A stretch of 64,000 nt of DNA from positions 28,706,001-28,770,000 of the forward strand of contig NC_073398.1 of the NCBI RefSeq assembly GCF_028641065.1, given 5' to 3'. The position numbers and the translations under genes are program-made. Positions within the stretch are counted from its first letter, which is position 1; the number at the start of each line of letters is the position of its first letter. Source of the stretch: Leucoraja erinacea (taxonomy: Eukaryota). The notes under the pieces were generated by a model, which did no database searches, was not told where the DNA came from, and was given only the letters and a program-made list of their open reading frames with translations. Positions 6,341-44,100 of the stretch are shown one piece after another.

Positions 6341-6356
6341 TGTATGTAATTTGTGT

Positions 6357-6555: not shown

Positions 6556-6559
6556 TATC

Positions 6560-6777
6560 GCCAATCTCCATATATTTAGTAACCATAATTTCTTTGTAGA
6601 TTTTGTAGAATTTCTACATGGTGAAAACAAAATGTATAAAAATGGCCTTAATTAAAATCTGACAATGTGCACTTTAACCACATGTGATTTTTTTTCTATT
6701 ACAAATCTCAAATTGTGGAGTACAGAGGCAAATAAATAAATGATGGGTCTGTGTCCCAAACATTATGGAGGGCACTG
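6560..6777 (+). mobile_element. Solitary right end of a second Tc1-like element
   Basis: Ends ...TATGGAGGGCACTG|TA. Confidence 0.55.
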
Positions 6778-7183
6778 TAAATAGTTGCAGGACAGCAAAC
6801 CAAGAACAGATTATGCTTCCAAACCCCTCTGTTATTTCTGGCCTTGTTTCACTGTGGGAAATTACTAGACTGGCCATCACAATCAGACAAACTCCAGCAA
6901 TTACATTCTGCATGTTAATTTGGAACAATTTAGAGGAAAGAGATAGCAATCTAATTTGTACAGTTGTAAAATGTACAACAAATAAGCAAATAATAAATCT
7001 TCATCAATTGAAGATTAAAACTATAAGATTACTATTGGCAAGATACATGCTGGGAGCCAGAGTAAGAGGATACGGGTACCCTTTTAACTGATGAGGGGGA
7101 GATACTTTGGAAAGGATAGGAGGAAAGAATGAATAGTATTGCTTGCTATTTCAATAATCATTCAATGACTGCGAGACACTGAC

Positions 7184-7338
7184 CTGCCCATAGATGCGGC
7201 TGGGTTTCTTCCCTCGACAATTAAGTAGTGCCCACCGTTTGTAGTTAACGTTGCACACGTGAACATCATTCCCACTGCTCTCGCCAAAAGGGACGCCGGT
7301 GCCTCCAAACACCAACAAGTTATTACCATGTAAAGCAA
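7184..7338 (-). CDS. KLHDC10: KLHDC10 coding exon 4 (VALHGNNLLVFGGTGVPFGESSGNDVHVCNV...KKPSRIYGQ)
   Basis: Manual translation; CAG acceptor, GTCAGT donor; 155 nt; frame continuous with exons 3 and 5. Confidence 0.95.
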
Positions 7339-8148
7339 CTGGAAGGTAAACAATATTAACATTGCTACATCTTAGTACTCATCATAAACAGGTCATAACT
7401 TCTCAAATTAATGGAATCCCTATTCTGTACCGAGTAACAGATTGCCTACTCCAGAGATCTGTACCTAACCTATCCTAAAAATGTACCAGAAAGCACACTG
7501 ATTAAATCGAGAGGAGTCATGCTTGGTGCTTTGATGGATTCATACCCAGGTATAACCAAGCGTACCAAATATCTCACTCTGCAAACACATTAATATTTAA
7601 ACTCTTAACCACCACCCCTCCACACCCATATACAACTAGACCCTAAACGTACAGAACCTGCACCCACATAGAACTATTGTTGCTCTTTCTCCTGCTCGTG
7701 AGATTTTTTTTTAAACTGAGGTACTGGTTTATCATATCCCCTGGCATTGTTTACACAATAATGAACAAGGTCAGAACATGTATACTCAGAGGACGAGAAG
7801 CTTACCGAATAACAAGCTGACTGCAAGGATGAAACACATCTATTCAAAACAGTAATAGAAAGTGGGTCCCACATGGATTAGTGGCAAGATCACATTAATG
7901 AATTGGATATAGACTGATCAAACACTAAAATGCAAGTCGACACAAAGGACTACAACCTATAAGAGATGACACTCTTGGAAAAAATAATGTCGGTCAGGGA
8001 AGCAAAGTAATGAGTATATTTAAAAAAAAAGTTGTGAATGCAGCAGAACAGCAAGAAAAAAAACACTAATGAAACAAGAATTAATTCTATAGAGAAAGTA
8101 GAAATATAGGCGGTAGAAAGTCTTACTAAACTAACACGATCATGTGCA

Positions 8149-8378
8149 GGTAGACAAAAATGCTGGAGAAACTCAGCGGGTGAGACAAGGAATATGGAGC
8201 GAAGGTATAGGTGACGTTTCGGGTTGAGACTCTTCTTCATACATCCCAGCATCTGCAGTTCTTTTTAAAACATATCGTACCTATTCCTTCGCTCCATAGA
8301 TGCAGCCTCACCCGCTGAGTTTCTCCAGCATTTTTGTCTACCTTTGATTTTTCCAGCATCTGCAGTTCTTTATTAAAT
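8149..8378. mobile_element. Inverted Penelope tail composite in KLHDC10 intron 3
   Basis: Minus-strand tail with decayed hammerhead core, then plus-strand tail pieces. Confidence 0.8.
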
Positions 8379-8778
8379 ATGATTATGTGCAGCCAGATAA
8401 GAGTTGGTCTTGGCATCATGTTCGGCACAGACATTGTGGGCCAAAGGGCCTGTTCTTGTGCTGTACTATGTCCTAATGATGCAGAACTGCCAATGTATAA
8501 GAATTAGCAAAGGATCAGCCTCCTGGGTTCATTTCCTCTAAAGGACAATATATTTGAAGTTTTTGAAATATTTCAGAATTTTAATTATGAGGACGCAGTT
8601 TCTAATTGTGGAAAGAGCAAAACTAATGTCAGTCAATGCAAGATAGTCACCAGAGAAAAAACAAATCAAAAATTAAGGACAATGGGGCAAGAATGAGGCA
8701 TACCACAGCGACAGGTCACGACAAATATCACAGGCACCATAGATATATAGGAGAAAACAATGAAAGGTTACAACAATA

Positions 8779-9677
8779 AGCGAGTTCGGTATTCCGACTG
8801 CGCATGCCCAGGTCATTGGTCACTCGCTATTAACATTCTCGGCAACGGTGGTGTTGCGTTGTGTGCAGGCCTGCGTTTTGTCCGTGGTCAAGGTCGGGCC
8901 CAGGTCTCCAGACGCTATTGAGTTGCTGCTGGGCCATACCCATCCCTTGTCTGGGGGAGGCCGGATGTACCTGTCCCTGTCCGGTGGCGGCCCCCCGACT
9001 TGCAGTCGGCGCGAGGGGGGAAAGCCTCTCTCCCATTCCCCAGCCCCTCTCTCCTGCCATCTATCCCTTTGACCACCTCTCCTTTGGGGGAATTACTGCT
9101 CAACGATTCCCGTCGCTGCACCAACTGAGGCCGGGTCTGGGGAAATTCGCACTTGGACTCCCCCACAGTAAATGGGACCCGAATCCCTCATCATCGTCAC
9201 AGGTCACAGAGAGACCGTCGGCTGCGCCTCTTGTTTTTTCCAGTGGCTGTCGGTTGCCCCCCTCGGTGCCGGAGCAGCGGCGGCCCACAGCCGGCGCGGA
9301 GAAGCGGCAACATCAGCTCAACTCTGCCTGTCCTGTCGGGCGGGGTCAGTGGCGGTTTGGCAGCGCTTGCGGCACCAGGGACCCGAGTTCGATCCTGGCT
9401 GCGGATGAGGCGCGGGTCTGTGTGTAGATAACAATGTCTCTCCGCCAGTACCGTCCTCTCCCCCCCCCCCCCCCCCCCCCCCTCCCACTGCATCCCCCTC
9501 TCTCCTGCTACCTGGCACCCCCATTCCTCAGATTAAATATATTTTTTACACATAAATCATGAATAAAGATAAGTTATACAGTTTCTTCAGCCAGCGTTTC
9601 GTTCTCTTTGTATTTATAGCGAGTGACCTTTGACAAATCCCATGATTCCTTGCATTTTTCAGAATACCAAACTCGTT
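8779..9677. mobile_element. Non-autonomous TIR element with GC-rich composite interior
   Basis: TA-flanked ~18-bp imperfect TIRs (AGCGAGTTCGGTATTCCG / CAGAATACCAAACTCGTT); right end homologous to 19565-19740. Confidence 0.7.
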
Positions 9678-10047
9678 TAAGGATGGGAGGTTGTTGGGAG
9701 TTCAACATAATCACTGCAGTGCACAAGTTAAGCCCAAACATAGTGACATTTTACACCAACTGCCCTTGCTCTTTGTTCCATCATTTTAACTGCCCAAAAG
9801 CTGTAACCTTCACCACTTTACAATCTTCTTAGGCCTTTTATAAACAACTCTCCCTCACTGCTGCCTAGTTTAATACTGTGCATTTTAATCTTCCTGGAGC
9901 ATGTCAAATAGATAAGACTCAAAAATTTCAGATGCCTAGCCATTATATTTTACAACAGATTTAATTATCATACTAGTGAATTAAAAAAAAAAAAAATAGT
10001 ACAGGTCTCATAGTGAAAAAGTATACAAGAAATGATGCAAGCTGTAC

Positions 10048-10269
10048 CCGACATTGATGCTAGCTCTCTGGGCATGAATCCCTCTGTACCAACTTGCTGC
10101 CAAGTACCAGAAGCAAAATGATATCGCCAGAGCTCTCGGAAAAGTGGGTAAGCTTCATTCCCTGGACCACCCGACTCCTCAAAGTCTGGATTGTAGCCAC
10201 CAAACACATAAAGGCTTGAATTATCTGCAACACAGCGGTGCCCACTTCGAGCGGGTGGAGCAATGTGAC
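10048..10269 (-). CDS. KLHDC10: KLHDC10 coding exon 3 (kelch repeat; PPARSGHRCVADNSSLYVFGGYNPDF...MPRELASMS)
   Basis: Strong recalled similarity to KLHDC10; CAG acceptor, GT donor; 222 nt. Confidence 0.95.
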
Positions 10270-11574
10270 CTGGAGAAGGAAAAGAGGTAAAAGGGGAAAA
10301 ATAAAATTATTGCCAACTCGGCCAGATCCATACAATTAAATCATAGAAATATTATATGTCACAAAATAGAAATGTTTTAAATAAGAAGTCTTTCGCATCA
10401 TTAAGATGCCTCAAATGAATACCGGTATTTAGCAAAGTTATCATCTGATCTACATTTGTCTGCCTCAGATTAGAGCAGTTTGCATTCTACATGAATGCTT
10501 AATCAAAAAGATATACAAGTAAATCACATTTCAGCTAGGAGCTTTTTTGGGGGCCATAGGCAGGGTAGGTTGAGGAGACAATGCATCTCCAACATCAGCA
10601 GGAAAGAGAGTCAAAGAAGGGAATGTTCTGCTAAGGGTTGTTGAGCAGAATGGACCAGAGCAGAGAAGGATGTTCGAACACAGAAAATCCAGCACAAAAC
10701 CTCACATTTAGCAAAACAATTATTACCAAGCAGTCTGTATTTAGTGATGCTGGTGAGGATATATACGAGCTGTAGCTTACTCGTCACATAATGCCATAGG
10801 ATCTTTTATATCCAAGCAAGGATTTAAGGATTGCAGACACCTGCAGTATAACAGTGGAGTGTCAGCCTAGATTTTGCACTCAACTCTCCAGAATGGGACT
10901 GGTATCCACTGCAAAATTCTGACCCAACAGCAGACCCTTGCTGGCTAACTGCAGATATTAGCTCTTGCCATCCTAAATTGCCACAAATGCATATTAAACA
11001 CAAATCCTATATCAGAAAGACAGTGTTCAAAACAAGCATATTTCTGTGTTCCCTTTACAGAACAAAGCAAGTCCAGCATTTCCTGAGACACTTTCAAAGT
11101 GACAACAGATACCTTCTGGTGACATTCAGGAAACACTGTTTCCAAAAATCATCATCAGGCCAAACTAAGTCACTTGAGGGGCCTGACTCAAGATTGTTAG
11201 CCACTAACTAATCAAGAAACACAGTAACATATAAGTGGTTCATTAAAGCATACACATAATTAATATTACCGCATTGCATATTCACTGTGCTGCCTCTCTG
11301 AAAGGCTGAAAGCCCCTACTTTCTGCGCGTAATGTCATGGGAAATTGGCTGGCGCTCAATGTACTTTTTTAAATGTCTCAATATTTTCAAAACTATCTAG
11401 TTATTGATTCGTCACTTCACAAGAGAATCGCTGCCATATCATTTACCGTAAACATGCTGAAACAGATAATGAATGGAAGTTATGAATGCAGAAACAAATG
11501 AGAAGTGGTCTAGACTGAAGTTACACCCAAAAGGATTTAGTAAACAAGTTATGCTTAAAAAAAAAAGGATTTTA

Positions 11575-13212: not shown

Positions 13213-13869
13213 TTTCTTTTAAAGACGATGACAAAAAAAAAGCACACCCCTAAATGTTATGTAAATACAAAAATGTCCCTGGGCATTCTCTAGCTCAAAT
13301 ATTCAATCGTCCAAGTAAGATCCAAAAAAATGTAGTAACAGAGGAATTGAAGTAATCAATAGACGTAATTGCCACGTCAAGATTAAGACCAGCAGATATG
13401 CATCTGGTGACTGCAAAACAACTAGGGTAAAAGGCTACTATTCATGCTCGAACAGGGGTTAGTATTGGCAGGCTGCAGCTGTAATAAATTAACTTCACTC
13501 AGCATCAAACGTTTCACGGCTGAATAATCAGCTTTAGTTGTGCCTCATTTACCTGCACCCTCACAGACACAGGAACAAAAAGCAATTCAAGCAGGACCGA
13601 TGCCTCCAGAGATGCGGCTCAACCCACTGAGTCTTCCAGTGTTTCACTTCGGTTCTAGATTCCACCATTTACTCTCCTTTGCCTTTATTCCCTTAAAAAC
13701 ACCCCTGAAAACCCAACACTTTCATCATCTGCCCGATAATTTTCAAGAATTTATCATCAATTTTTGTTTGAAGACTCCTCTGAAATGCCTTGGGAGACAT
13801 TGCTATATCATAGGTACTTTGATTCTTGTACTTGGAAACCATTTAAATACTCCTGATGTAGTAATAAAG

Positions 13870-14390
13870 AGCTGCAGATGCTGGTCAATACACAAAAGGA
13901 CACAAATTTGCTGGAGAACATTGATAGGTGATGAACCATGATCAGACTGACCTCCTGTCCTGGGCTTCCTGCATTGCCAGAGTGAGGGCACATGCAAATT
14001 GGAGGAACAGCACCTAATTCCACTTGGGTAGCTTACAAGCCAACAGCACGAATGTCCAATTTTCCAATTTTAGGCAACCTCTCACTAATTCCCCCCTTTT
14101 TTTCTTCCCCCCCCCCTTCCTCCCACTTGGAGTCCCACTTGGAGTCCCCCCCTCCCCCCCCCCCCCCCCCCCCACCACACCCGTGGCTTCACAATCCCCA
14201 ACTCTTCAAATCAGAATCACACCTACTGTTCTTACGTCTGATATATGTTCCAACTATTTGTCTGTCTAATCCCCCCCTTGCCTGTGTCGACCTATTATCT
14301 GCTTTACCCCTTTTCCAGGTTTCTTCTCTCCTCACGGCAATCAGTCCAAAGACCCGAAAAGTCACCTATCCACATTCTCCAGGATTTTAA
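13870..14390 (+). mobile_element. Degenerate Penelope 3' fragment preceded by an inverted tail piece
   Basis: KLEEQHL..LGSLQ..NVQFSNF remnant of GIY-YIG C-terminus; decayed tail at ~14340-14385. Confidence 0.7.
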
Positions 14391-18229: not shown

Positions 18230-19740
18230 GTCAAGTATTGCCCCAGCTCCTGGGGGAGCCATCCGGAGACTGTCGGCCAGGCACGGAACTCGCTATCAAA
18301 ATATGGAGGGGACCGGGGGACACAATTTTTTGGCTGCCGCGCACGCATGCGCACACTCACACACACATGCGCGTGGCTTCGGAGGCTCAATCCAGCGCTA
18401 AATACAGCTCAACTCTGCCTGTCTCACCGGGTTAACCTACAAGCCCCGACAGGACTGACGGGATACCTGCGCTGCTTCTCCGCGCTGGCCATATTTCCCG
18501 CAAGCCCAGGCAGGTTAACCTAGTGGGACAGGCAGAGTTGAGCTGGGTTTAGCGCTGCTTCTCTGCGCTGGCTGTGGGCCTGGGGGTACAGCTCCCGTCT
18601 GACTCCCGACCTCTCTGGACACCCGTGGGGGGGGCACTCGGGTGGGGACGGGACAGCGCCGGAGACCCAGCCGGGATTGATCCTGGCTGCGGATGAGGCG
18701 CAGGTCTGTGACACGTCTCCCTCCTCCAATCACCGCACTCTATCCTCAGTCCTACCCCCCCCCCCCCACTCCTCCCTCCTCCAATCATCGCGCTGAATTG
18801 TATTGTATTCCTGGAGCCAGTTCATCATGTCCCACCCCCATTGCCTGCTGACCGACGTCTCTTTCGTCCAATCGGCGCCCTCGATCAGCAGTCCCACCTC
18901 CACTGTCTCGCGGAAAGTGGATATTTTAAAATCCGGATGACAAAAACTGCGGGTGGGGGGGGGGGGTGGTGGGGGATGTCCCCCACCTCTCAAAACATGG
19001 GGGGGAGAGACGTGTCCTCCCTAGCCCGCCCCCCCCCCCCCCGGGTTTTCCGCCTGTGCCGTCGGCTGCACCTCTCTCCATGTCCTGTAGCTGTCGGTTG
19101 GCCAACTCAGCCAAGCTCCGGTCATCGGCGAGGATGCACACGGGGTGCTGCGGTGGCTTGGCGGGTCAGGCAAAATCTCTGGAGAACGTCACCCATTCCT
19201 CTTCTCCAGGAATGCTGCCTAACCCGCTGAGTTGCTGCAGCATTTTGTGTGTATCCCCGTTGATTCCCCGCGCTGGTTGTGGGCTTGGGGCCGCCGCTGT
19301 CCCGTTGGTCCAGGGTTGTTCCAGACGTTTCCGGCCACCCCCCGGGTGGGGATGGGACATTCTGGGGGGGAGAAGGTCCAGCGGCGGGTCGGCAGCGCTT
19401 AAGGCGCCGGGGACCTGGGTTCGATCCTGGCTGTGGATGAGGCATGGGTCTGTGTGCGCAGAGCAGCACAGCAGCCGAGAATCTCTCCGGCGGTCCAGTC
19501 TCTCCCCTGTATCCCACTCACATCTGCCCCCTCTCTCTCGCTCTCCCACCCCACTCTCCCACTACCTGGCACCCCTGTTCCTCAGAATAAATATATTTTT
19601 ACACATATCTTATGAATAAAAATAAGAATTTATACACAGTTTATACTGCCAGCGCTTCATTCGCTTTTTTTTTTAAATCGCGAATGACCTTTGACAAATC
19701 CCATGATTTCTTGCGTTTTTCGGAATACCCAACTCATTTA
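18230..19740. mobile_element. Related composite TIR element (left boundary approximate)
   Basis: Shares right terminal ~170 bp and internal SINE-head-like blocks with 8779-9677. Confidence 0.55.
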
Positions 19741-22033: not shown

Positions 22034-22202
22034 CTGTTTAAGAAAGAACTGCAGATGCTGGAAAAATCAAAGGTAGACAAAAATGCTGGAGAAACTCAGC
22101 GGGTGAGGAAGCATCTATGGAGCGAAGGAATAGGTGAGGTCTATTCCTTCGCTCCATAGATGCTGCCTCACCTGCTGAATTTCTCCAGCATTTTTGTCTA
22201 CC
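22034..22202. mobile_element. Fold-back Penelope tail insertion
   Basis: Inverted ~65-bp arms; TSD TTAAAGTTCTATC (22021-22033 / 22203-22215). Confidence 0.85.
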
Positions 22203-22838
22203 TTAAAGTTCTATCTTGACCTTTTCAGGTTGGATTTTCTCTGGACTATTAACTGTACTAACTTTGATAAATGCTACCTGCGTTCAACTTTCAAATCAAT
22301 ATCTATTCTATATGCTATTTGCACCCAACTTGATATAGGAGCAGATATAATAGCACACAAGCATCAATTTGAATAGTTAGACACAATCTATTATTAGATT
22401 CACATTCAGAATATGTGATGGCAAACAACACAAGAGTCAAATGATAGACACAAAATGCTGGATTAACTCAGCGGGACAGGCAGCATCTCTGGAGAGAATG
22501 GGTGAAGAAGGGTCTAACAAAAGGTCTCGACACAAAACATCACCCATTCCTTCTCTCCAGAGATGCTGCTCTGGAGAGAAGGAATACTGCTCTGCACTCA
22601 ATCTCATTCTCCCGCCTTCTCCCCATAACCCCTGACACCAGTACTAATCAATCTATCTCTGCCTTAGAATATCAATTGACTTGGCCTCCACAGCCGTCTG
22701 TGGCAACGAAGTCCACAGATTCACCAGGATGCTGCCTGACCCGCTGAGTTACTCCAGCACTGTTTTACTGTACATACAGACAGTTGATTGTGGGGACAAC
22801 TCTACAGATTATTTGTGAGTGGGCGGTCCAACACTGAC

Positions 22839-23195: not shown

Positions 23196-24942
23196 TCGGG
23201 CCCACGTCCCGCTCTCCCCTCACAACACAAACAGGCGCCGCAATCCACCAATCAACGTACCCCTCCTCAGCCCTGAGCCCAATCGCTGACCGCCTTATTT
23301 TGAGGTGGGCGCGTTCAGGAACGGCCAATCGAGCTACAAGCTGGATCGACTTCGCCCTTAAAGGGGCAGCGCCGGCAGGAGACGCAATCGACCGCCGATG
23401 GCATCGCCCTGCCCTTGCCAGTCGCCTTTTCGGCGACCTGCTGCAACTATGACAGTCGCCGGCAGTCGCCTAGTGGGACAGGCCCTTTAAGTTCGCCGGC
23501 GTCTGCGGGCGGGGACAACCCACGGAACCAAGCACTGGCCTGAAGAAGAGACCCGGCACGAAACATCACCTATCCATAAGATACTCAGTGGGACAGACAG
23601 CATCTCTGGAGCAAAATGAACAGGTGACGTTTCGGGTCCTGGCCCTTCTTTGGACTGAGAGTCAGGAGAGAGGGGAACGAGAGGGCAAGGTGCGAAAACG
23701 ACAAATCAAAGCAGTGGGTCTGGGTTAAAACGTGGGCACTGGCCTGAAGAAGAGTCGCCTGAAGAAGAGACCCGGCACTAAACATCACCCATCCATGTTC
23801 CTCAGAGATACTGCCCGGTCTGCTGAGTTACTCCAGCAATGTCTTTTCTGTAAGGCAGAATCTGCATTTCCTTGTTTCTACAAGCACAGGAGTTTGTCAT
23901 TGAAACTGATCTAAAGTGCACTTAAGTTACTCAGACTAATGTGCAGATGGAATAGCTATTTGGATAAATGGTATCTTCCACAGGTGCTGGCTGACCTGCT
24001 AAGTTACTCCAGGACATTGTGTTCTCCTTGAGTAAACTGGCCTTTATTGATAAGAGGGATAATGCAGGAAAATGTTGTGGGTGATCGGTCGTGATTTTAT
24101 TGAATAGGCACGAAGGTCCGAATGGTGTATTCATGCTCCTGTTTCTTGTGTTTACATTCGTTCTTATCCTTCAATTGTGAAGAGCGTCTCTTTATCATAT
24201 GAATGAAATGATTTTTGGTGCATCTTTACAAGCACTAGTATGAATTTAATTGGACTAGTTCATATGACAAATAAACACTTTTGACGCTTGAAGGGTAAAG
24301 TACAAAACTAAACATTAGTACATAAGAAATAGAAGCAAGAATGGGCATTTGAGACCCCAGTGTCTGCATGGCCATTGATTAAAATGACAGCTTATCACCC
24401 AAAATACAATTTTCCTACGTTATCTCCTTGTCTCCTGATATCCAATTTGTATGCGATTAATGATTGAGACTCTGCAGGGATCAGAAACAGAGAATTCAAA
24501 ATCAATATAGGAAGTCAAACCCTGGATCTATTGTTACTTCAACCAATTAAACCACACAGGTGGTAGAGTTATAGACTATATTGAGTCTTGGTGAAGGCAC
24601 ACCTGGAGGATTGTGTGCAAACTTGGTTCACTTGCCTAAAACGTTTCATCTAATATAATTTAACTATGACAAGAGTTCAGTAAGGTTACACCAGACTGGT
24701 TCTTAAGATGTCAAGCTGGTCACATATGTATTTTGTTAAAATAATATAAATTACATACAAATTATGACAGAAAAATAACATCACAAACCAACTGTTTTTG
24801 CAAATGTAATGTTTCTAACTTGCTGTTTTTTTAAAATATTCTTTCTTCATTTATTCTCCTAATATTATTAAATGGAAGGTACACAAAATTGCTGGAGAAA
24901 CTCAGCGGGTGCAGCAGCATCTATGGAGCGAAGGAAATAGGC

Positions 24943-24970
24943 GACGTTTCGGGCCGAAACCCTTCTTCAG
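24943..24970 (-). ncRNA. Minimal type I hammerhead ribozyme core in a Penelope tail (24877-24973)
   Basis: CUGAAGA-A-GGGU-UUCG-GCCC-GAAAC-GUC on the minus strand. Confidence 0.7.
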
Positions 24971-26020
24971 ACTGATGTTGATATGTTCTCTAGGTTTGCC
25001 ATGTTGCTCTTGCTCATGGTCCAAAATCTACATTTAATATCGTCTTGATGTGCTCTCATCTTAGGTACCTGAATAACTGTTAATTGTTTCCATTTATTTT
25101 GACCCATCCTTTCATAATAGTAAAAACTTTTAAAACATTTTGTTATCACAAAATAATACATTCTTTCTACAAAATCTCTTGCCACACTCCATAAAAAGCA
25201 ATCCATTATTCCACACTAAACTTCAACAGTTGCTTTATTAATATTGGTTTTACATTTTCATTTAAACAGTAACATCCTGATTTGGAAAGCAGAGCTTTTA
25301 TTGTATCAGAATTTAAATATAAAACAGGATAAGATTTAGGAAAACTGAAACCTTGCATAAAATCTTGTTCACATATCTTGCGGAGGAAGAATTAGAACTG
25401 AGGATGCTGAGCCAGTAGCATAAAATATCAGCTAGTTTATACAGAAAGTTGTTGGCATTAGCTAATTATTAAGAGTCACATTTGGTATCAGCAACAATTA
25501 GTTTAGTTGAAGGTCCCTGCATTATTCCTAAATGCACTCAGTTAAATAAACACTTGCAGGTAAATAATATCGTTATGAAGTTCTGAAATATTTACAGCAA
25601 CAACATGCTTTGAGTGAGGTTGGTATTTTAATACGAAAAACACAACAGGTAGTATACTCACAGCAAACTCACACAGCAGTAATGTGACAGATTTGTTTTT
25701 GTGAAGTTGATTTTCGGATAACTTGCTTGTCTTTCTTCTGTGTCGTTTCATGAGATCAAGTTTGACGGGGCCTTAGTCCGACGCTTCTTTCAAAATAAAG
25801 AACCTCTGACATACTATGCCAAACTAGATAATTATATGTTTACCAAATAACCTTCACTTGTTTAATCAATAAATGAAAACATTCAAATAAAAACAACTTA
25901 TTTTTCACCTAAGGTTGCTTACACGGCCCGATATTATTCTGCATATTCCAAAGAATCTCATTCTTTCCAGGAAGGAAAGTAAACTAATATAACAAGACCA
26001 GTGAGTTCCTTGGAACTATA

Positions 26021-27155: not shown

Positions 27156-29933
27156 GTAAATTCAACACATTTCTGAGTTCTTTTTCTTCCCAGGGGTGTT
27201 AGTGCGCATATATGAGAATGAATGGGCCAGTCCCACGATTCTGTCCCATGGGATCGTTTCTCACTAAATTATTCAGGGAAATCAGTTTTGCGGCGTTTGC
27301 TGAAGAGAATTAACTGCAAAAGAGAAGAGTCAAGATACCCTCTCTCATCCGCTAACCTCTGGTGTATCTCCAAACAATTGTACCTGCTTCTTGGGTCAGA
27401 TGGTCGTGAGTTCATCCCAATCCAGAGATTTCACCATAAGATGCAGTTCTGTTTATTCAGAGTTAGTTCAATAACAGCGGGTTGATGTCTGATTTCTTTT
27501 CATTTGTTCTCTTGGACAGGACATTCTACTTCTGGCAGTCCATTGCAGTCCCTAAACCATGCTGAGTTTTATCTTCTCTCGTGACATTCTATATTCCCTG
27601 GTTCTTGTACACCTGTTGATGGAATATTTTTTCTATTCTGCCTATACCCCTTGATAACTTTAATTACCTTTATCGTATCCCTTTATATATGTTGTTCCAA
27701 GTAGAACAATCCTCGTGTATCCACATGCTCTGGAATCGTTTTGTCAAACTACTGCACCCTTAGTACAAACCTTTCGCCTTTCCTAAAGTGTGTTGTATAG
27801 ATCTATTTTCTAGATAGTAAATTAGTGGCTGAGTATTGCTCTATAAAGATTTATCAACATTTCATTTCTTATACTCTATGTCACATTATATTAAGCCATG
27901 ACTGCTGTGTACTTCAACTACTTTCTCAGCCTGTCCAGCCTCCTTCAACAAAAACGCACATCCAATCTCAAATTTGTCTGTTCTAAAATAATAATAATTA
28001 ATTTTGGGGCACTGGGCATTGCTGGCAAAGATCAGCATGAATTGCCTGTGAGAAAATGGAAATATTTCCACAGTGATGTTGCATTGAGGAGTTTCAGGAT
28101 TTAGGTAAAGCAATGATGAAAGATCAGGAATGCCTCCAGGTGGTGCCTGGCTAAAGGGAGAATCTGTAGCTCTTGTTCTGAATGAGGTAAAGGTCAAAGC
28201 TTTTGGAATGTTGTCAGATTAGCCTGGGTGAGTAACTGGGTTGTGTTGGAGATGAATAAAGGCAAATGGAACGTATTCAGCTATAACTCTGACATGCTTT
28301 GTAGAGAGTGGAAGGAATTTGGGCAGGAATTGTATTACTTGCTGCAGAAGATATAGCCTCTGACCTTGGTTTGTCATAACAATAGTTATGTGTCTAACCT
28401 TATTGAGTTTTTTGTCAATGGTGATCCATAGGCTGTTGATGATGGGGTTTCAGCAATGGTAACGGCATTGAAAATCAAGGGTAGGTGGATTGACCATTGT
28501 CAACAGGGCAGATGTATGTCTGAAACCTTTGGTGCAAATGTTACTTACAGCTTATCATCCTGTGACTAAAAGCTATTTTAAGTCTTGCTATGTGCAGGAA
28601 TGCACTGAATTAATTGTTGAGGACTTGCAACCAGATTTGTACATTATGCAATGGTCATCATTTATGACCTTGTGGTGGGAAGAAGGCCATGAAAGAGGCT
28701 GCTAACATTGGCTAGGCCTGGAATATACATTGACAACCTTGTATAGTGATATTTTGGACTGGGATAATTAACCTCCAACTATTTTCCTCTGTGCAAGTAT
28801 GACTTCACCCTCTAGGATATTTTTTCCTTGATACCCATTGACTTCAGTTTTATCAATCACCCTTGATGCTGTGTAATAACAAGAAACTGCAGATACTGGT
28901 TTGTACCAAAGAAAAACTCAAACTGCTGGAGTAACTCAATGAGTCGTGCTGCACCTTTGGAGAACATGGACAGATGGAGTTTCGGGTAGGGATCCTTCTT
29001 CAAACCTTGATGCCATACGTGGTCAAATGCTGCCTTATGTCAAAGAGAGCTATCTCGCCTCACTTCTGGAATTAAGTTCTTGGATTTAAATTTGAAACAA
29101 CTCTCTGAAGAGGTCTAGAGCCATGAATCCTGTGAAATGCAAAATGACATTGGTGAACTAGTTAGTGGTGAGTAAGCCCTGCTGGATAGCACTGTTAACA
29201 AAGCCTTCCATCACTTTGATGCTGATTAAGAATAGACAGAATCCGAAGTAATTGGCTGCATTGGGTTTGTTCTGCTTTTAATGAACAGGACCGATTTCCA
29301 GTGTCAGGTAGGTGGCAGCTTTGTAACTGTTTTGTAGCAGGGAGGTTGTGGGGTGTCAGTTTTCAATACCACTGCGAGGAAGTTGTCTGGACTGAGAGGT
29401 TTTTGCTGTAACCACTCTTATCATTTCTTGATGTCACATGGAAGTAATCTAGGCACCTGAAGACTGGCTTCTGTGATGAAGGGGAATCTCAGGAGGAGTC
29501 ATATATTCAGCACTTCTGGCCGAACAAGGTGCAAATGTCTTAGCCTTGACATTAGCAGTAATGTCAGGGTCTCGCTGTGGTTAGGATTGTGGTCTGTAGT
29601 TTATATTGCTTCTTCTCATTCTTCCTACCAAATGTAACACTTAGCATTGCTCAGGATTAAATTTTATATTTCATATTTATTTGGAATATGCCCATTCCAC
29701 CAGCCTGCAATCTACCTTGGAGCGTCAGCCTGGTTTATATGCTCAAGTCTATGAAGCAGAGCTTCAATCAGTTAACTTCTGATGAACATGTTTGCCCACT
29801 GAGCCACCATTGCTACTAACTATTCATATCTGATGTTGCCCAAAATTAAACCTAAGTTACTGCCATTACATTGATAGTAGAAGTTCTAACACTGTAGTAT
29901 TGGTATCTAATTGTTATTATCTTTGTTTCCTAG

Positions 29934-30048: not shown

Positions 30049-31464
30049 ATATCCTTCAATGTTGTTATTTAGTCATAGACATGTGCACCTAAGACATCAG
30101 TGTTAAGTATTACAAACCAGTACACTCAGTGGTACAATTGTGAATGAACAGAGTCTTTTACTTCGGGTAGGGTAATCAAGAATTAAAGGGCATAGCTTTC
30201 GGGAAAGAATTAATAGGGGCAACTTTTTCACTCGGAGAGTGATGGGGATATGGAATGAGCTGCCAGAGGAAATAGTTCAGCCAGGTACCACAACAGCATT
30301 TAAAAGACACTTAGACATGTACATTGATAGGAACATGAGCTAAATGTGGGCAAGTGGGACTAGCCTGGAAGAGGCAAATTGGTCAGCATGGATGAGTTGG
30401 GCTGAAACGCCTGTTTCTGTACTTTATGATACTAGTTATGGAGTGCAAACTATACTTGAGTGGAAAAAGCATTCAGGGCCACGTAATGCCTGAAGCAGTG
30501 GTTTCTTGGTCAACTTTGAGCTGTTGAATTTCTGGTTTGGTGGAGGAAGGCTTGTGTGACTTGTAAATACACTATTAATTGTTGGACCATTTAAAATGGA
30601 CAGGAGGAAGACAGCTCCAGATTATTGAAGGGTTTAGACCAATACAAGCATGAAGGGCAAAATAGTAGCCTCCTGGATGAAAGAAGGGCCTTGACCCGAA
30701 ATGTCACCTATTCCTTCGCTCCATAGATGCTGCCTCAGCCGCTGAGTTTCTCCAGCATTCCTTTCTGCCTCCCGGATGAATGTCTCTTGTAAAAGCAGGA
30801 AGTGATTAATAATTAAAAGGAATGTTAACGTAAATTTGAATATGAAATGCCAGCTGCAGGAAATTAGGTGGCATTGGTGTAGTCAGAGGGTGCCAAAGTT
30901 CAAGTAGTAATTTGTGGTGAATTAGCTGAACGACCGCACACATTGTGCTAAGTTGGGTGAAGGGCTGGAGGTGGCAGCAGCTTGCCAGAGTTCCTGTGTC
31001 AACGATTATCCAGTAACGTACTGGAAAACTACAACCCGATTCCTATCTGATGCTCCCCATCGGGATAGGTTGCCCGTAAAATATGTGTATAACGAACGAC
31101 CATTCATGCAGTTTTGAAGGGTGCGGTGAGTCGACACCTTCACAGAGTAGAAGTAAGAAAATCTTGGGGGGGAATTGAAGAAAAGCTTTGAGCAAACGAC
31201 ATAATTCCTGATATGTGGAAAGGATTGGAGCATGAACCTGAGCCTCTGGTGTTCAGCCAGATAGTGAGAGATAACGCTTGCACCCCCTCCTACATGCCTG
31301 ATATGAAAATTTTAAAATACAATCATGCTCCCAATCTGTATATATCAGAGACCATTAATTCTATAACAGATTGAGGGGAAAAAACCCATAGAGGGGATGT
31401 TGTGCACAAAGTTAAGAAAGCTTCTTAATAAATGGAGAAGGCACATTTTTCTTGACAAAGCTAC
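30049..31464 (+). other. ZC3HC1: U12-type AT-AC intron (ZC3HC1 intron 2)
   Basis: 5' ATATCCTT; branch TTTCTTGAC at ~31448-31456; 3' AC; splicing restores frame (ESFT|SFKWAG). Confidence 0.92.
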
Positions 31465-34629: not shown

Positions 34630-34818
34630 GTAGGAAAGAACTGCAGATGCTGGTAGATTGAGGTAGACACAAAATGCTGGAGTAACTCAGCATGTAATCA
34701 TCCTGCGGGAAGACGTGGCAGAGGGAGAAAGGTCTGAAGAAGGGTCTCGACCCGTAACATCACCCATTCCTTCTCTCCGGAGATGCTGCCTGTCCCGCTG
34801 AGTTACTCCAGCATTTTG
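34630..34818. mobile_element. Fold-back Penelope tail insertion carrying a captured exon fragment
   Basis: Inverted tail halves; TSD CATCA(T/C)ATTTAT; central 37 nt is the reverse complement of part of ZC3HC1 exon 7. Confidence 0.85.
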
Positions 34819-34862
34819 CATCACATTTATATAACTCTCTACTTTATTTCCAACGTGACTAG

Positions 34863-35392: not shown

Positions 35393-36033
35393 GTAAGTAG
35401 CAGTGCATTTGGGTGGATCGCTAGGGAGAACTGTGCTACCAAACTGTTACACTGGTAGATCCATAGCACTGGAACTACATATCTGAGTTTGTTAGCTCAT
35501 TGTCACCTCCAGTTCTGAAGCTCTTCAATGCCTGTTCTCTCCACTCCACTGTTGATAGTCATGTCTTCAGTTACCTGGCTCTAAAATGTCATCCTTATTC
35601 TAGAATCTGAAACATGCCCTCCGACCTAACTTAACCATACCCCATCTACAGTGGTCCCACCTGCCCGCCTTTGCCCATATCTCTCTAAACCTTTCCTATC
35701 CTTTCTCTCTATCTTTCTCTTCTCCTTCAAGAAGATACTTAAAACTTATCTCTTCAGCCCATTTTTTTTGTTGTTGTCACCTGTCATTGCCAAACCTTGA
35801 GCAAAATACAAATTGCTGGAGGAACTCAGCAGGCCAGGCAGCATCTGTGGAGAAAATGGAAAGGCAATGTTTTAAATTGGGAACCTTCTTCAGTTTTTAG
35901 ATCCGCTGAGTTCTTCCAGCACGTGGTGTTGTGCTCAAGTTCCCAGCATCTGTAGTCCCTCGTGTCTCCATTGCCAAATCTTGTTTGATTCAATGCTGAA
36001 TTGGTTACAAGGTTTTGAATATTTGTGGAAAAG

Positions 36034-36511
36034 GATATGATATGCCATTTATTGTCACTATACATGTACAGTGAAACTGAAAGCTGCTCGTACTCGGTGG
36101 TGCATACATACAATTTAGCACAAAAAACAAGACAGAAAAACAAAAAACAGAAGGGAGAAGGGGGGGGGGGGGATGGGGGGGGATAGCTGCACAATTTCTG
36201 CGGCGCTACATACATATATACATATATACAGATGGAAGTCCGTGGTGTTGGGCAGTGAAGTCAGTGCATGTGTGAATTAGAATTAATAGTAGTTATAATT
36301 CTCGGAAAGCAACTATTTCTGAGTCTATTTGTCCTGGATTTGATGCACCTATAGCGCCTTCCAGAGGGCAGCAGGTCGAACAGTCCAAACGCAGGATGGG
36401 AGCTGTCTTTGATGATCTTCTTTTCCCTGCTAAGGCAGCGGGAGGTGTAGATGTCCATCAGGGAGGGGAGAGGGCAGCCAATGATCCTCTGCGCTGTCCT
36501 AGTTACCCTCT
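36034..36511 (-). mobile_element. Rex1/Babar 3' fragment
   Basis: ORF 36261..36563 LQRVTRTAQRIIG...LLPSGRRYR. Confidence 0.85.
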
Positions 36512-37743
36512 GAAGGATATGGATTGTTTCATGGTAAAAAATAGTCAATTTGAAAAGGACCAATTTAAATGGGATGAGAACAGATATGAATTGAGTAAAC
36601 CGGCTTGGCAGGCAAAACTATAACAGTGGGTGACCTTTAAAGTGGAGGTATTCCCTAGTCTAGGTACATTCCCATGAGGAAGAAGGATGTGGACAGTAAA
36701 GCCAGAGCTCCTTGAATTTTAAGAGGTGTAAAATGCAGTAGACAAAAGTGCCTATGACAAAGAATTAGGCTGATTTAGAAAGTCCACACAACAAGAAATG
36801 GAAATGAGAAACAAAGAGACAGCAAGAGAAAAGATTGAAATCAAACATTTAAGGAATACACAGACAGTCCTTGGTATTCCAATAGGGAAAGATTTGTGTA
36901 GGAGAGGTGGAGCCATTCAGAGTAAAATTAGGAAATCAACTTCTTGCTGTAAAGGGAGCAGCTGTGGAAACCAAACTTACATTTGAAATCATTCTTTACC
37001 ACGGAAGAAGGTGCTAGATTGCACACCAGTAAATTTAACCTCAATGGTGGGTAGGTTGTAGAAATAATATTCATGGACATAACTGGCAATGAGCTGATGA
37101 GAGGGATAAGTGTGGGGGAAATCTGGAACTCCCTTTCCCGAAAGGTCTATGTGTGAAGGATAGTTGGAGCTGTAAAGACAGTTTGAGAGAGAGATTTTTT
37201 GGAGAGTGGTACAAAATATATGTAGGTAAATAAACTTGGGTGCCGTTGAGCTGTGATCTGATTGAATGAGCTGAACACCTATCTTGTCCTGGGAAAATAA
37301 AACACAAAATGCTGGAGTAACTCAGTGTGTCAGGGAGTATCTCTGGAGGACACGGACCGGTGATGTTTCAGGTAGGGTCCCTTCATCAGAATCCAGCGGG
37401 TTTCTTTTTGTAAGCCAGCATCTGCGGGTCATTGTGTCTCTCTTTTGTCCAGTGGCCGGTTTCAGGATATAGAAGGGGTGGGCAGAAGGTCTATTTCAAT
37501 TATGTATATTTCCAGGACCCTATAATTGTATGAAACTGGGATAATAATGATCACTTGGTGGTGGTAGAAGAAAGTAATCACAATCGGTGGAATTATGCTG
37601 TGACGAGGAGAATCTAGGAGGTGATAGGTGGACGTGAAGGAAATTTGGAAGTCCAAAAGATATGCTGGTTGATTCTAAGCGAGCTGTTCAGGGAGGTTTA
37701 GTTTGATTTCATTTCTTCCATTTTTAATATGACTGTTTTACAG

Positions 37744-37968
37744 GATAGTGTCCGGGGATACTTCAACCCTGTTTCCCAGCACAGGGATTGGTGTCCTTGG
37801 ATTCGAAGAGAACTGAAACCAGAAGATCAGCTGCACAGCTCTGAGCCAGAGAAGCAGAACTTGACCCCTGGGTCACGTGAGAAGACAGAGCCCAGCTGGG
37901 TGACGGTACTTGAGGTTCTGTTGTCCCTGACAGGATCCAGCAGCCCAAATGAGGGCATGGATAGCTTT
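37744..37968 (+). CDS. ZC3HC1: ZC3HC1 coding exon 9 (YFNPVSQHRDWCPW...)
   Basis: ORF 37729..38022; CAG acceptor, GTAAGT donor; QHRDWCPW motif. Confidence 0.93.
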
Positions 37969-39151
37969 GTAAGTAGCACTTTTTCTCCGGTTAGCAGGCT
38001 GCTCGTAGTCCTCTTTCCTTAAAAGGATGAATTCCTTGCAGAACATGGTTCCAACTACTCTTTTCCAGTTCCCCTTTCTGCATTGTTGTCAATTGACCCA
38101 CAATGGAGTGTGCAGCGGGCTCTCAACCGATAGGAATCCTAGATAGTGAAAGGAGTTAGGACAAAAAACATTTTGATTTTATAAGCAGTTCCAATTAGTG
38201 CCGTTCGCATCTTGTGGCAGAAAATCAGTACAATGCCGGCTTTTGCTTTTACTCTATCGATGGCCTGTCTCATTTGTACATCTTTTGATCATTGTGACGT
38301 CTGGTCTGAGCATCCATTAGATTCCCAGACACTGGTAGCATGCCCTGGCCTGTTGCCCATCTCCCATATTAAAAAGCTGCTTAATTTGGATGCCAAAAGT
38401 AGAGTTCTCACCAGAAGGAGGGAGAGAGAAATATTTAACCTTTGTTTGTTTTAGCATTCGTCCACATGCTGGAAAGGTGCCGAGATCATGACCAAAGCCA
38501 TATTGGCCAGTGCTGCCTGTTGAATCAGACAGTTCATAAGCGATCAGGGCAGAATTAGGCCATTCGGCCCATCAAGTCTACTCTGCCATTCAATCATGGC
38601 TGATCTATCTCTCCCTCCTAACCCCATTCTCCTGCCTTCTCCCCATATCCCCTGATACCCGTACTAATCAAGAATCTGTCTGCCTCTGCCTTAAAAATAT
38701 CCATTGAGTTGGCCTCCATAGCCTTCTGTGGCAGGGTGGTTTATTTGTGTCCACAGTCATCCCTCCGGTACCATTCATATGATGCATTCAACCAGAATCT
38801 TTTTTATGTTTTGTACTGGAAATTTTGCAAGTACAGCGATCCTGCTAGAACAGAGAGTGAATTGAACCACTGAGGGGGATGAGGAGGAAATACATCGCCA
38901 TCCAAGATGGAGGTGGCATTGTACTCCCTTTAGGTTCCTCGTCAGGCAGACTGTTTTCTTCACAACTGATGAGCCGTGCAATTCTGTGCTGACATTTTCA
39001 TGCTTTTCAGTTTCGGACTAACTAGACGCAGCAAAATGCCAAGTAATCCATAGAATTGTAATAGTTCAGAAGGAGACCATTTGATCCCTCGACTCAATGC
39101 ACATAAGACCGAGTCAAGCAGGCCTTGTTCATATACTGTTTTTGTTGTTAG

Positions 39152-40869: not shown

Positions 40870-41191
40870 TTCAGATTCAGATTCAATTTTAATTGTCATT
40901 GTCAGTGTACAGTACAGAGACAACGAAATGCATTTAGCATCTCCCTGGAAGAGCGACATAGCAAACGATTTGAATAAATAATAATAGGTGTCCGGGGGGG
41001 GGGTGGTGATTGGCAGTCACCGAGGTACGTTGTTGAGTAGAGTGACAGCCGCCGGAAAGAAGCTGTTCCTCGACCTGCTGGTTCGGCAATGGAGAGACCT
41101 GTAGCGCCTCCCGGATGGTAGGAGGGTAAACAGTCCATGGTTGGGGTGAGAGCAGTCCTTGGCGATGCTGAGCGCCCTCCGCAGACAGCGC
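40870..41191 (-). mobile_element. Rex1/Babar 3' end, near-identical to 56280-56610
   Basis: Reverse-complement match including tail. Confidence 0.88.
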
Positions 41192-44100
41192 TTTCACCCC
41201 CATCTCATAGATGTACTGGTAGATTAATTGGCTGTTGTAAACTACCTCTGATGTAGGTCAGTTGCAAAACAGCCAAAGATAAGCTGATAGGTACATAAGA
41301 GGCAATAGGTTGCAAGGAAATAAGAGGACTAATGGGACCGCTCTGTTGAGACCTAGCAGGAATCCAATGGGCTGAATAGCTGCCTTTCATGTTGTAATCA
41401 GTAAGTGTGAAAAGTAAAACAACTGAAGAGTCTGTGCCTGCTCATGGATCCCACAACTCACACGTGTCTGAATGACCACAGATTTTAGAACCAAGTAATA
41501 TACTATTCATTAGATCACTATAATAGCAGACAAATTATTGGTGAATAGGTAATGCAAACAAGTCTGTCCTTTTGACTACCTCTAATCTGACCCCCCACCC
41601 CCTCCCTCGGTTCATAACCGATTACACTTTTCCTGACATGTTCTGGTACAGGCAACTACTTTGGCTGTAAAATGACTCATTTAGGAAAATCTAGATGAGG
41701 AAACATAATGGAAGGTTATGCTGGTAGACTGGGGTGAATAAGGGTGAGCAGAAGCTTTTGTAGAACATAAATACTGGTATAAACCTAATGACACTTTGCT
41801 GTGTATTAACAGTGTTTAATGTGCAATATTGTTCATGTTATAGAGCAGCAGAATGTTAAGCTGTGTCCATGTGCTGTCTAAGATGGAACAATTAACTTCA
41901 ATTTTCCCCTGGCTTGACATAAGAAAATTCATTCTTTTCATTATACAGTTCTTGATCTTTAGCTTGGTCTGCAATGTAGTTCCCTCCCACAGTCAAATAA
42001 ATTGCTGCCAGTTTGCCTTACGAAGGATGGCTATTAGGAAAGATTACTGTTAGATATCCTGTAAGATCTGAGGCTCAATTGTCCTAACGTGGAAGATCAA
42101 CTATGGGCTAAATCAGGAAGAGGTGACCAGGTAGCATTAACTTGGATATGTTGGAGTGAAGTGAGAATATGAACATTTTTAAACATCCTTTATCCTTGAC
42201 TGCAGCGATGGTCTAAAAAAAAGTGCTGTTCTACAGTTGTTTAGAGGACTTCAGCCCAGGGTCGAACTAAATAACAGATCACAAATGTAATCAGGTTCAC
42301 TTCACTCTGCTCTCTTGTGATCGTGTGCACAGTTCTGTGAAGTTAGACTAAGTGCTTTTAAAGTACAATATAAGGACAGAAATATATGCATAAGATAATT
42401 GTTGTTGACGAATGCAAACTGTACGTAAGATCACAAACTGTTGCAGCAGATCAACAGTTTAACCCAAAGAATTGTCCACAACTCACCCATTTTAGTGCTG
42501 ATGCTGTCAGTAATTCGAGCAAGTGCTGCCACAGACTATATCAACAAGGATGGTGTTACATCCAAGCCTAACCTGCGTTACTGTGCATCGATGACCATCT
42601 TCAGCTAATTAAACAATGACACATGTATCAGACGGCTGGACGTTGGGATGTTCTCATGGCAATAATGAATTCCACTTGCAACACCTCAAATAATATAGCA
42701 CTATTTTCTTTTTCTGCCTTTTACTTACGCACACTAGCCTATTCTTCACTCTTTACTATCTCTTTTTTCTTTTTCTCTTCCTACTTTTCTCTTTAAAAAA
42801 AAAGGAAGTTGTACAGAGAATGTAATATGTTAACATAATTTTGGGAACCTGTAAAAAGGTACCACTGTATTATACTTACTTCTAATAAATAAAAAAAATA
42901 ATAATTAAATAATAACGTCCATTTTGCCCATGCAAATAAACTATTTCCAACAAAGTGAAGTCTAACCATTTCCCTCTCAATTCAGTGGAATTACAATTGT
43001 TGAATCATCACCATTAATATGCTGTGAGCCACCATTAAACAGAAATGTAAAAGGATAAACACAGAAATACTATGGCTTCTTGCACAAGGCAGATGCTCAG
43101 TTTGTGTGACTGCTCTCTCCAAAGCATTTCCATCATCCATAGGGATAAGTGCTAGACTGAGTGAGGGATAGAAAGGAAAACACTAGACAGAGGGGGTTGA
43201 AGATTGGTGGAAATTGAGAGTGTGAGGAAAAGATCAGCTCTTATGACTGTGGCCATGTGTGTGGTCTGAATGGGGCTGTGTACTTAGATTGTGTAACTGT
43301 ATATGTGTTGGTGCCAACTCTATGCAGCAGACCCTCTGGTCTCCCATCGCCCTACCTCTTTGTATTGGGCCAAGTCATCATTTTGCTGAGCCCATGTAAT
43401 AGCTGGTGTGCGACAGCCACCTCATGATGAAATAATTCCTGTACAGATATCTTCCAGTTCACCAAAGTCATGCTCAAGATTAGGCAAATCCTCGTGACTT
43501 GGCATGGAACTGGGCAACTCAATCCAAGCTGAATGTTCATTAAAATCTAGTTGCGTTCAGTCATCCTCAAATCAGGTTGCCAGGCACTGACCCACAGACT
43601 CCTATACACTGAACTGTACTGTTGTGATTTAAGTGAGCTCAGCACAGCAAAGGTCAACCTTGAATTAAATAAAAGCTAGTTTAGCAGTTTGTTGAGGATG
43701 CCATTTTGGAGCAACATTCCAGGAAAATCCAGCATTTGTCTTTAAATTTAAGTCAAATATTTAACACCAGATCAAAGAACAAATATACCACAAGAAACAG
43801 GTCTATTCTTAAAGGTACACAAAAAAGCTGGAGAAACTCAGCGGGTGCAGCAGCATCTATGGAGCATCTATGGAGGTCTATTATTAATGCTGGTGTTTCC
43901 TCTGAACTTCCTCTTTCCTCATCCAACTCCCTCAGCATAACTTGCTATTCCTCCCCCCCCCATGTAGCAGCTGGTGTATGACAGCCACCCCATGATAAAA
44001 TAAATCCTACACATCTTCCAATCCTCCAAAGCCATCCTCAAGACGAGTCAAATCATCATGACTTGGTATGTGATTATCTTGATACCCTGCACACACACCT

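Follow-up and report, generated by a model that had tools for sequence, protein, structure and literature searches.

The question raised by a 64,000-nucleotide stretch of the Leucoraja erinacea genome (contig NC_073398.1, positions 28,706,001 to 28,770,000, forward strand; hereafter, the window) is what a short, abundant repeat with a hammerhead-like 5' part represents and which RNA its copies were made from. A sequence-only reading had taken the repeat for a derivative resembling short interspersed elements (SINEs) or retrozymes and mobilized by a Neptune-type Penelope-like element (PLE). We find that the repeat is the hammerhead-plus-tail core of the pseudo-long terminal repeat (pseudo-LTR) of a PLE encoding a reverse transcriptase (RT) and a GIY-YIG endonuclease (EN), and that its short copies, or stubs, are probably dead-end run-off products from RNA left uncut at the hammerhead. 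Positions within the repeat are numbered from the hammerhead C3 (position 0), with cleavage predicted after +27; A-type denotes the youngest helix II variant, with a UUCG loop, and B-type the CUCG variant.

The parent element and its hammerhead

In the full-length element, L041, the coding region is preceded by an inverted partial pseudo-LTR and a direct one and followed by a second pseudo-LTR, and the hammerheads lie 4143 bp apart, on either side of the frame for RT and GIY-YIG. Because L041 carries the repeat at both ends, the repeat corresponds to the last 95 to 135 nt of the element and to the start of its 5' untranslated region (UTR), which bears out the suggested link to Penelope. The encoded protein (P0001) is arranged as RT, a C-x4-C-x2-C linker, and a GIY-YIG domain with a CCHH motif; the matches to RVT_1 (E = 2e-6) and GIY-YIG (E = 0.005) are both under Pfam's cut-offs, with the motifs visible in the sequence. 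A sequence search of PDB with P0001 returned 0 matches; 1821 relatives were recovered, the closest named ones being from cartilaginous fishes (63% to 74% identity). The element also has the pseudo-LTRs, partial tandem, inverted 5' copy, and 30 to 40 bp tail that characterize EN-containing (EN+) PLEs. Its linker fits the CX2-5CxxC motif that, lying between RT and EN, marks Neptune and Nematis (PMC8557442), and only Neptune and Poseidon are reported from the vertebrates sampled (bioRxiv 10.64898/2026.07.22.740005). Thus, the proposed Neptune-type affiliation stands as far as a linker of the Neptune/Nematis type is concerned, and the linker makes Neptune itself the probable clade. The family may already bear a name in Repbase or Dfam, and it may be among those catalogued in the preprint (bioRxiv 10.64898/2026.07.22.740005).

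The window holds a 5'-truncated young autonomous element (52838–53547, minus strand; 99% identity to L041), in which the end of the frame, with the linker and the GIY-YIG domain (53052–53546, minus strand; E = 8e-4, under Pfam's cut-off), is followed by the 3' UTR, the hammerhead (C3 at 52932), and the core. The repeat copy at 52838–52938 (minus strand) begins 117 nt past the last codon, so that the repeat at 52838 is indeed the 3' part of a GIY-YIG-encoding element. All 150 scored genome matches to this frame have 99% to 100% protein identity, and the core lies downstream of 55 of 76 endonuclease C-terminal matches, behind 3' UTRs of about 90 to 430 nt and with both helix II types represented. 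At 53548–53566, a 19-nt piece of the element's own endonuclease region abuts the truncation point on its 5' side as templated filler, and older endonuclease-region fragments of the same element group lie at 13949–14018 and 59618–59687. The 3' UTR (53049–52939, minus strand, and in the long copies) has an intron-like look, with GT at the stop codon, a pyrimidine tract, a CTRAC-like motif, and a YCAG before the hammerhead; one older lineage lacks the GT, and no spliced copy was detected.

The copy at 24877–24976 reads on the minus strand CUGAAGA-A-GGGU-UUCG-GCCC-GAAAC-GUC, followed by about 70 nt of conserved sequence, and the description of the 5' part of the repeat as a minimal type I hammerhead is thereby confirmed. 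It belongs to a stub of the youngest (A-type) family (24876–24976, minus strand) that spans -6 to about +95, lacks the tail, and is 95% identical to the L041 unit. The hammerhead itself (24943–24972, minus strand) has C3 at 24970, an extra A after A9, a helix II of 4 bp with a UUCG loop (24951–24962), a loopless ACGU palindrome, and a helix I of 2 bp, with cleavage predicted after 24943. The core CUGANGA and GAAA, U16.1, and H17 of PLE minimal hammerheads are all present, as are the unpaired base after A9, the G10.1-C11.1 pair, a paired helix II, and a palindrome at 15.2–16.2 without loop III, which is ACGU in 9 of 9 family majorities and has a G-C pair in the distant locus L283. Helix I departs from the published 4 to 5 bp: it has 2 bp (U-A or U-G, plus G-C), and 1 bp in one cluster, as weak as had been noted at the outset. 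A second helix II, initially read as GGGUC-UC-GACCC, would need an impossible 2-nt loop and is better described as 4 bp closing CUCG. An Rfam scan detected no hammerhead family at E ≤ 5 and yielded chance microRNA-type matches to palindromes; the identification therefore rests on the motif and the published descriptor (PMC4209133).

The core is better conserved than the 3' part, as anticipated: in a comparison of nine family majorities, which are clusters and not independent lineages, all 11 core positions are invariant, whereas the 3' part has 37 invariant positions out of 65 (Fisher p = 0.005), with the blocks +41 to +55 and +60 to +78 nearly as invariant as the core. Changes within the motif fall at tolerated places only (two loop II bases, 11.4, H17, and 1.1), and helix II stays paired in all nine majorities, as claimed, through one-sided changes from U-A to U-G at 11.4. 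Covariation of helices I and II in ten natural copies was not above that in shuffled alignments (338/500). Among 36 metagenome loci with a complete endonuclease and at least 250 nt downstream, the minimal hammerhead, with double-sided changes, stands on the sense strand behind 4 of the distant endonuclease frames and behind none in two controls (the antisense strand and the inside of the frame); two of these loci, L285 and L283, have double-sided changes in helices I, II, and III.

In the stubs, the ribozyme is predicted to be inert as a monomer. In the predicted fold of the 24877 copy, the core pairs with +34 to +41, the helix II probability is about 0.001, and the helix I pairs have probabilities near 0; folding z-scores of the repeat are likewise near 0. 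For the mini-elements L353 and L368, the energies of double-hammerhead structures carry little information: they exceed that of the free fold by 27 to 29 kcal/mol, and part of helix I is missing at the junction. Such motifs are reported to have no activity as monomers and low activity as dimers (PMC4209133), and cleavage by the hammerhead of PAc, a Poseidon element of the anole, is described only in the presence of protein (PMC11167929). A separate observation concerns nested stems predicted in L041 (6835–6975, minus strand), in which the tail is the partner of +47 to +55, and +85 to +89 that of +56 to +60; the two 3' end sites of the copies (see below) adjoin these stems on the 3' side, and both blocks are conserved across families. 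The stems, with a z-score near 0, could possibly be the binding structure of the enzyme.

A profile built from ten natural copies matches the window 30 times and its reversed sequence 0 times. All 16 coordinates listed for the repeat at the outset lie on or beside a profile match, with the count being 30 rather than the roughly 20 given then, and the very high copy number extends to the genome: 567 matches in 1.40 Mb (140 stretches of 10 kb at round coordinates) give an estimate of about 8.9 × 10^5 copies in 2.19 Gb (bootstrap 7.8–10.0 × 10^5). Searched for exactly, a 26-mer from the A-type hammerhead has 22,732 matches in the genome, and one from the young UTR junction has 4,527. Most copies are decayed. 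Only 15 of the 30 window matches reach the 5' end of the hammerhead and 3 of 30 fit the strict descriptor, while core, helix II, palindrome, and 2-bp helix I are jointly intact in 2 of 13 scorable window copies (24970 and 52932) and in 47 of 341 scorable genome copies; the core alone is intact in 117 of 341 single copies.

Ends of the short copies and the RNA template

The short copies share a front edge. Among 50 A-like copies, including 5 from the window, the 5' end lies at or beyond -100 in 13, between -99 and -7 in none, and between -6 and +3 in 21; the remaining 16 end at +6 to +41, many of them at inverted-pair junctions. A series of 50 consecutive exact matches on a single contig (C1) comprises 36 copies with their ends at 0 to -6 and 14 long ones, four of which were recognized by eye via an older UTR; two rows represent one duplicated locus. 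Across 119 short copies, the match to the upstream sequence fades from -2 to -6 and reaches background by -7. On the 3' side, the copies end at one of two sites, about +91 to +98 or +129 to +132. Among the 119 short copies, 49 are flanked by target duplications of 8 to 15 bp, compared with 1 to 7 in ten shuffled controls; 20 of the 49 overlap the element by 1 to 3 nt, and 26 have extra bases. Starts in the cleavage region were found in 3 of 342 solo copies, whereas 187 start within the first five positions of the model; a near-full-length element (L254) and a stub (L135) begin exactly at +28, the base after the cleavage site, which is no more than expected by chance. The target duplications, together with the near-absence of cleavage-site starts, indicate that the stubs are direct insertions from RNA uncut at the hammerhead, and since starts cluster within about 7 nt of the front edge, the template was likely an uncut RNA beginning there. 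At one stub (L119:6514, minus strand), the 5' junction contains a reversed copy of the downstream flank.

We propose that the endonuclease would nick the target and that the RT would start inside the RNA, at one of two sites, in the manner shown in vitro for PAc, which is reported to initiate internally at two sites and to use mainly uncleaved RNA as its template (PMC11167929). The enzyme would then copy 95 to 135 nt through the uncleaved hammerhead and run off the 5' end of the RNA, which would be a probable RNA polymerase II start at the initiator-like TCAGT. Templates extending upstream of the hammerhead (tandem read-through RNA, a ribozyme-made circle, or a template jump) would give rise to the long and full-length copies, and the ribozyme would be kept by selection on the autonomous lineage only and decay in the stubs. 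An RNA 5' end fits the front edge best. The motif YCAGT before C3, which we take to resemble an initiator, is kept in all long families, and of 12 junctions starting at -2 or -3, 8 have an untemplated G in front of them (p = 0.008 in a post hoc test that leaves out a thirteenth row, whose G derives from the target; 9 of 13 with that row included). For the Penelope element of Drosophila virilis, an internal TATA-less promoter in the pseudo-LTR has been described (PMC2377424).

Would the edge instead be a place where the RT is halted by a folded structure or a protein bound at helix I in the 3' pseudo-LTR, making the stubs ordinary 5' truncations? The edge does coincide with the 5' strand of helix I, and 5' truncation is general in PLEs (PMC8557442). 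Yet this helix has 2 bp, with a predicted pairing probability near 0, and PAc products lengthen with the template 5' end in vitro (PMC11167929). Among 30 elements that include the beginning of the coding region, the upstream pseudo-LTR extends to +3 or beyond in 19, and 1 of the 19 stops at the edge, as opposed to 21 of 34 terminal copies (p = 4e-5; two rows have a flank in common, and four extend past the end of the retrieved sequence). Near-full-length elements thus rarely stop at the edge: in 18 of 19, the enzyme read past the upstream hammerhead, by then about 4 kb into synthesis. Stalling is therefore improbable. A stop at a lariat branch was also considered and rejected, as the young family has no A from -7 to -14 and its copies include the A at -6. 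An edge formed by a 3' splice site, with stubs arising from spliced RNA or lariats, is the least credible of the explanations considered; the YCAG and upstream pyrimidine tract are kept in all long families and the D. virilis intron ends at helix I (PMC4209133), but two predicted spliced junctions have 0 genome matches when control motifs gave thousands, the joint was not seen among the 15 RNA-read matches listed of 103, and target duplications abut the stubs with no exon between, which also rules out splicing to host exons.

A more serious alternative, albeit an unlikely one, is that the stubs form a SINE-like family with an internal promoter and priming sites that would supply its own transcripts, to be copied in trans by the Penelope protein. 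Like a SINE, the stubs have a fixed 5' edge and their own target duplications; a defined 3' end is not required for internal priming (PMC11167929), few full-length elements begin at the edge, so that stubs may have other templates, and tail-to-open reading frame (ORF) junctions are rare (123 versus 22,732 hammerheads). A lineage of their own, with derived changes absent from the autonomous partner, was not found. A small sample of 85 A-type copies, selected without regard to endonuclease, contains each of the five most frequent haplotypes, the youngest among them, in short as well as long copies; no main haplotype is short-only, and the stubs track every autonomous subfamily. They also decay with CpG loss through the core, and mini-elements (see below) that start or rejoin at -5 to -1 carry past-tail sequence, which is found only behind the upstream pseudo-LTR. 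A separate SINE or retrozyme family, as first proposed, is thus not supported: both helix II types stand behind endonuclease frames, and haplotypes are common to short and long copies. That the stubs are true retrozymes, that is, monomers cut by the ribozyme, circularized, and copied, is highly improbable. Tandem mini-elements of 165 to 348 bp do repeat one junction 2 to 3 times, four of them with at least two strict hammerheads; however, cut monomers would begin at +28, as 3 of 342 do, no unit within the stub closes between one cleavage site and the next, the units of three repeated arrays are without an intact hammerhead, and arrays amount to 9 close pairs among 100 listed junction matches.

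Several observations weigh against run-off from uncut RNA as the origin of the stubs. No target duplication was found at the stub at 24876–24976, and the two 3' blocks are nearly as invariant as the core. The untemplated-G signal is small as well as post hoc. With 1 of 19 full-length elements starting at the edge, a second, upstream-extending class of template is needed. The D. virilis start is placed about 120 nt before the end of the intron at helix I (PMC4209133, PMC2377424). RNA from related organisms (three raw runs, covering two organisms, and one contig set) contains the core on both strands and shows no pile-up of molecule ends, a weak point since the libraries are fragmented and stem from other organisms. 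Finally, stubs make up a larger share of the older haplotypes (about 24 short and 9 long copies) than of the two youngest (14 and 13), which makes some stub-to-stub copying possible and can equally be cited for a SINE-like family; two variants occur in 8 and 7 short copies and in 0 filtered long copies, although long copies with these variants were seen elsewhere in the analysis.

Head-to-head pairs, tandem mini-elements, and other features of the window

Solo stubs are accompanied by an excess of inverted arrangements: 211 of 597 matches (35%) form 106 head-to-head pairs, compared with 8 tail-to-tail pairs and 19 direct neighbours. This scarcity of direct tandems, whose units are a rare minority, argues against the bulk of the repeat being retrozyme-like, as had been supposed. 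Exactly one arm carries the tail in 59 of 82 complete pairs (49% expected; p = 2e-5), several pairs join inside the quasi-palindromic helix II, and in four window pairs a single duplication surrounds the whole pair. These properties would fit priming of both target strands from two sites. The window pairs comprise one inserted unit with a 13-bp target duplication and the tail on a single arm (50221–50447); a pair joined inside helix II with a 10-bp duplication and, again, one tailed arm (56850–57045); a pair without the 5' half of the hammerhead, flanked by a 13-bp duplication (22036–22216); a pair with an 8-bp flank word common to both sides (8146–8385); and pairs of older stubs at 22443–22570 and 34636–34828 and of old stubs at 35794–35959.

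Tail-to-ORF junctions occur 123 times genome-wide. Of 100 listed junction places, 20 were retrieved, made up of the 9 direct pairs that lie close together, one inverted pair, and the first 10 new singles; none is a full-length element, and 8 of the 10 singles are internally deleted mini-elements. The mini-elements (L351–L359 and L361–L370) consist of a pseudo-LTR piece plus 60 to 180 nt past the tail, and 5 of 20 types of deletion junction lie at -4 to -1, which speaks for the run-off origin. Eight of the nine close pairs repeat one deletion junction 2 to 3 times, in units of 165 to 348 bp; a duplication of 11 to 13 bp surrounds the whole array in five repeated arrays, and three have no intact hammerhead in the unit. 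Direct tandem units that each contain a hammerhead are limited to the rare mini-elements L351, L353, L354, L357, and L359. A similar joint, from about +223 back to +2, is present in a contig from a related organism. The arrays likely arose by rolling copying of one RNA, through template jumps or on a circle, with later unequal crossover as a possible source.

Taken together, the stubs, pairs, and tandem arrays might tentatively be seen as the fossil record of a two-template Penelope cycle, an idea to which we give clearly less credence than to the run-off origin of the stubs. Capped, uncut RNA from the front edge of the hammerhead would yield hundreds of thousands of strong-stop-like stubs; a dimeric enzyme would prime both target strands from two sites, producing one-tailed head-to-head pairs; and the enzyme would be able to jump from the 5' end of the RNA back to a 3' end and go round again, building retrozyme-like tandems even without an intact ribozyme. 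If true, such a cycle would be a direct birth route for animal retrozymes, with the ribozyme's job confined to the long template.

The remaining matches in the window are single or fragmentary. Two degraded stubs (23579–23656, minus strand, and 23757–23874, plus strand) and a short 5' piece at 23540 together occupy 23540–23874. An old stub with a tail and a degraded core lies at 28880–29005 (minus strand), a stub with a degraded core at 30680–30781 (plus strand), and an old stub at 37295–37390 (minus strand). A young stub beginning at +41 (43798–43866, minus strand) and a 3' fragment (44378–44437, minus strand) both lack the hammerhead. Of the two B-type stubs, the one at 44699–44807 (minus strand; helix II closing CUCG) has an 8-bp target duplication and has lost its palindrome by CpG decay, and the one at 58371–58497 (plus strand) has a 10-bp target duplication and a 2-nt overlap at its 5' junction. 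A weak 3' fragment (13603–13660) and further 3' fragments (19185–19262, 22726–22769, 23977–24043, and 60914–61000) are all on the plus strand.

Host sequence is represented by Pfam matches to Kelch repeats (9971–10306, minus strand) and a NuBaID_C domain (37702–38019, plus strand), in exons that we assume to belong to KLHDC10 and ZC3HC1, respectively; presumably, a UBE2H-like first exon, which has no Pfam match, lies near 61.8 kb. The stub at 24877 would be antisense within an intron of the NuBaID_C gene. Other mobile elements include a Tc1/mariner transposase with one stop (1320–2405, plus strand) and a long interspersed element (LINE) RT frame (55437–56453, plus strand), the latter with shorter relatives at 36261–36617, 40902–41257, and 48673–49053. 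Positions 49492–49685 are 194 N.

Comparison with known systems

Earlier work already covers the motif and where it lies, truncated singles, inverted pairs, the tail, and the derivation of retrozymes from pseudo-LTRs (PMC4209133, PMC8557442, PMC3846280, PMC7229834, PMC6765202, bioRxiv 10.64898/2026.07.22.740005). As the motif and the Penelope link have been published, the family itself is ordinary; what is added here are numbers. The young copies would show which RNA was copied, namely, uncut RNA, starting at the front edge for the stubs and longer for the long copies, and the near-identical young family and the tandem mini-elements L351, L353, L354, and L357 are ready substrates for in vitro work. 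We found no account of a strong-stop-like origin of solo pseudo-LTRs, or of this family, in a search that left most subscription journals, Repbase, and Dfam outside its reach.

Minimal hammerheads have been reported in Xena, Poseidon, and Neptune elements of fishes (Cervera and De la Pena 2014, PMC4209133), and the PLE hammerheads described there share with ours the loopless palindromic helix III, the unpaired base between 9 and 10.1, the G10.1-C11.1 pair, and the location in pseudo-LTRs; they, too, are mostly single motifs from truncated elements or pairs on opposite strands. Helix II and helix I have 7 to 8 and 4 to 5 bp in Schistosoma, as opposed to 4 and 2 bp here, with a 2-bp helix I published for D. 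virilis (PMC4209133). The roughly 9 × 10^5 copies estimated here (22,732 exact, for one variant) compare with 4,000 to 9,000 descriptor hits in coelacanth and Xenopus, although the counting methods differ (PMC4209133). PAc (Poseidon, Anolis carolinensis; Frangieh et al. 2024, PMC11167929) likewise has two 3' end sites 30 to 40 nt apart, delimiting the tail, an uncleaved RNA template, and no RNA ends at the cleavage site. It differs in clade and in its frame, which starts in helix II, whereas our element belongs to a clade with a Zn linker and its frame likely starts past the tail; a fixed 5' edge of short copies, as observed here, does not appear in the parts of the PAc account on which we draw (PMC11167929).

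The order of RT, CX2-5CxxC linker, and GIY-YIG with CCHH is that of EN+ Neptune and Nematis PLEs (Craig et al. 2021, PMC8557442). EN+ PLEs also share 5' truncation, partial tandems, an inverted 5' copy, and a tail at one end (PMC8557442; Arkhipova et al. 2013, PMC3846280), as well as target duplications of 8 to 10 bp, 5' microhomology, solo pseudo-LTRs, and an initiator-like motif within the pseudo-LTR (PMC8557442, PMC3846280). In the sections of those sources consulted, however, solo pseudo-LTRs are few and are partly attributed to recombination or deletion (PMC8557442, PMC3846280), whereas most of the copies here are of this kind, many of them flanked by a target duplication of their own. 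Non-LTR retrozymes have the same pseudo-LTR origin (Cervera and De la Pena 2020, PMC7229834), and retrozymes were found in the sole cartilaginous fish sampled (bioRxiv 10.64898/2026.07.22.740005). The rare mini-elements fit the working definition of a retrozyme provided that the motif is present in two units (Li, Clavereau and Pollet 2026, bioRxiv 10.64898/2026.07.22.740005). The bulk of the repeat, in contrast, is monomeric or head-to-head, with a minimal hammerhead and no unit from cleavage site to cleavage site, whereas retrozymes carry a canonical hammerhead (PMC7229834, bioRxiv 10.64898/2026.07.22.740005).

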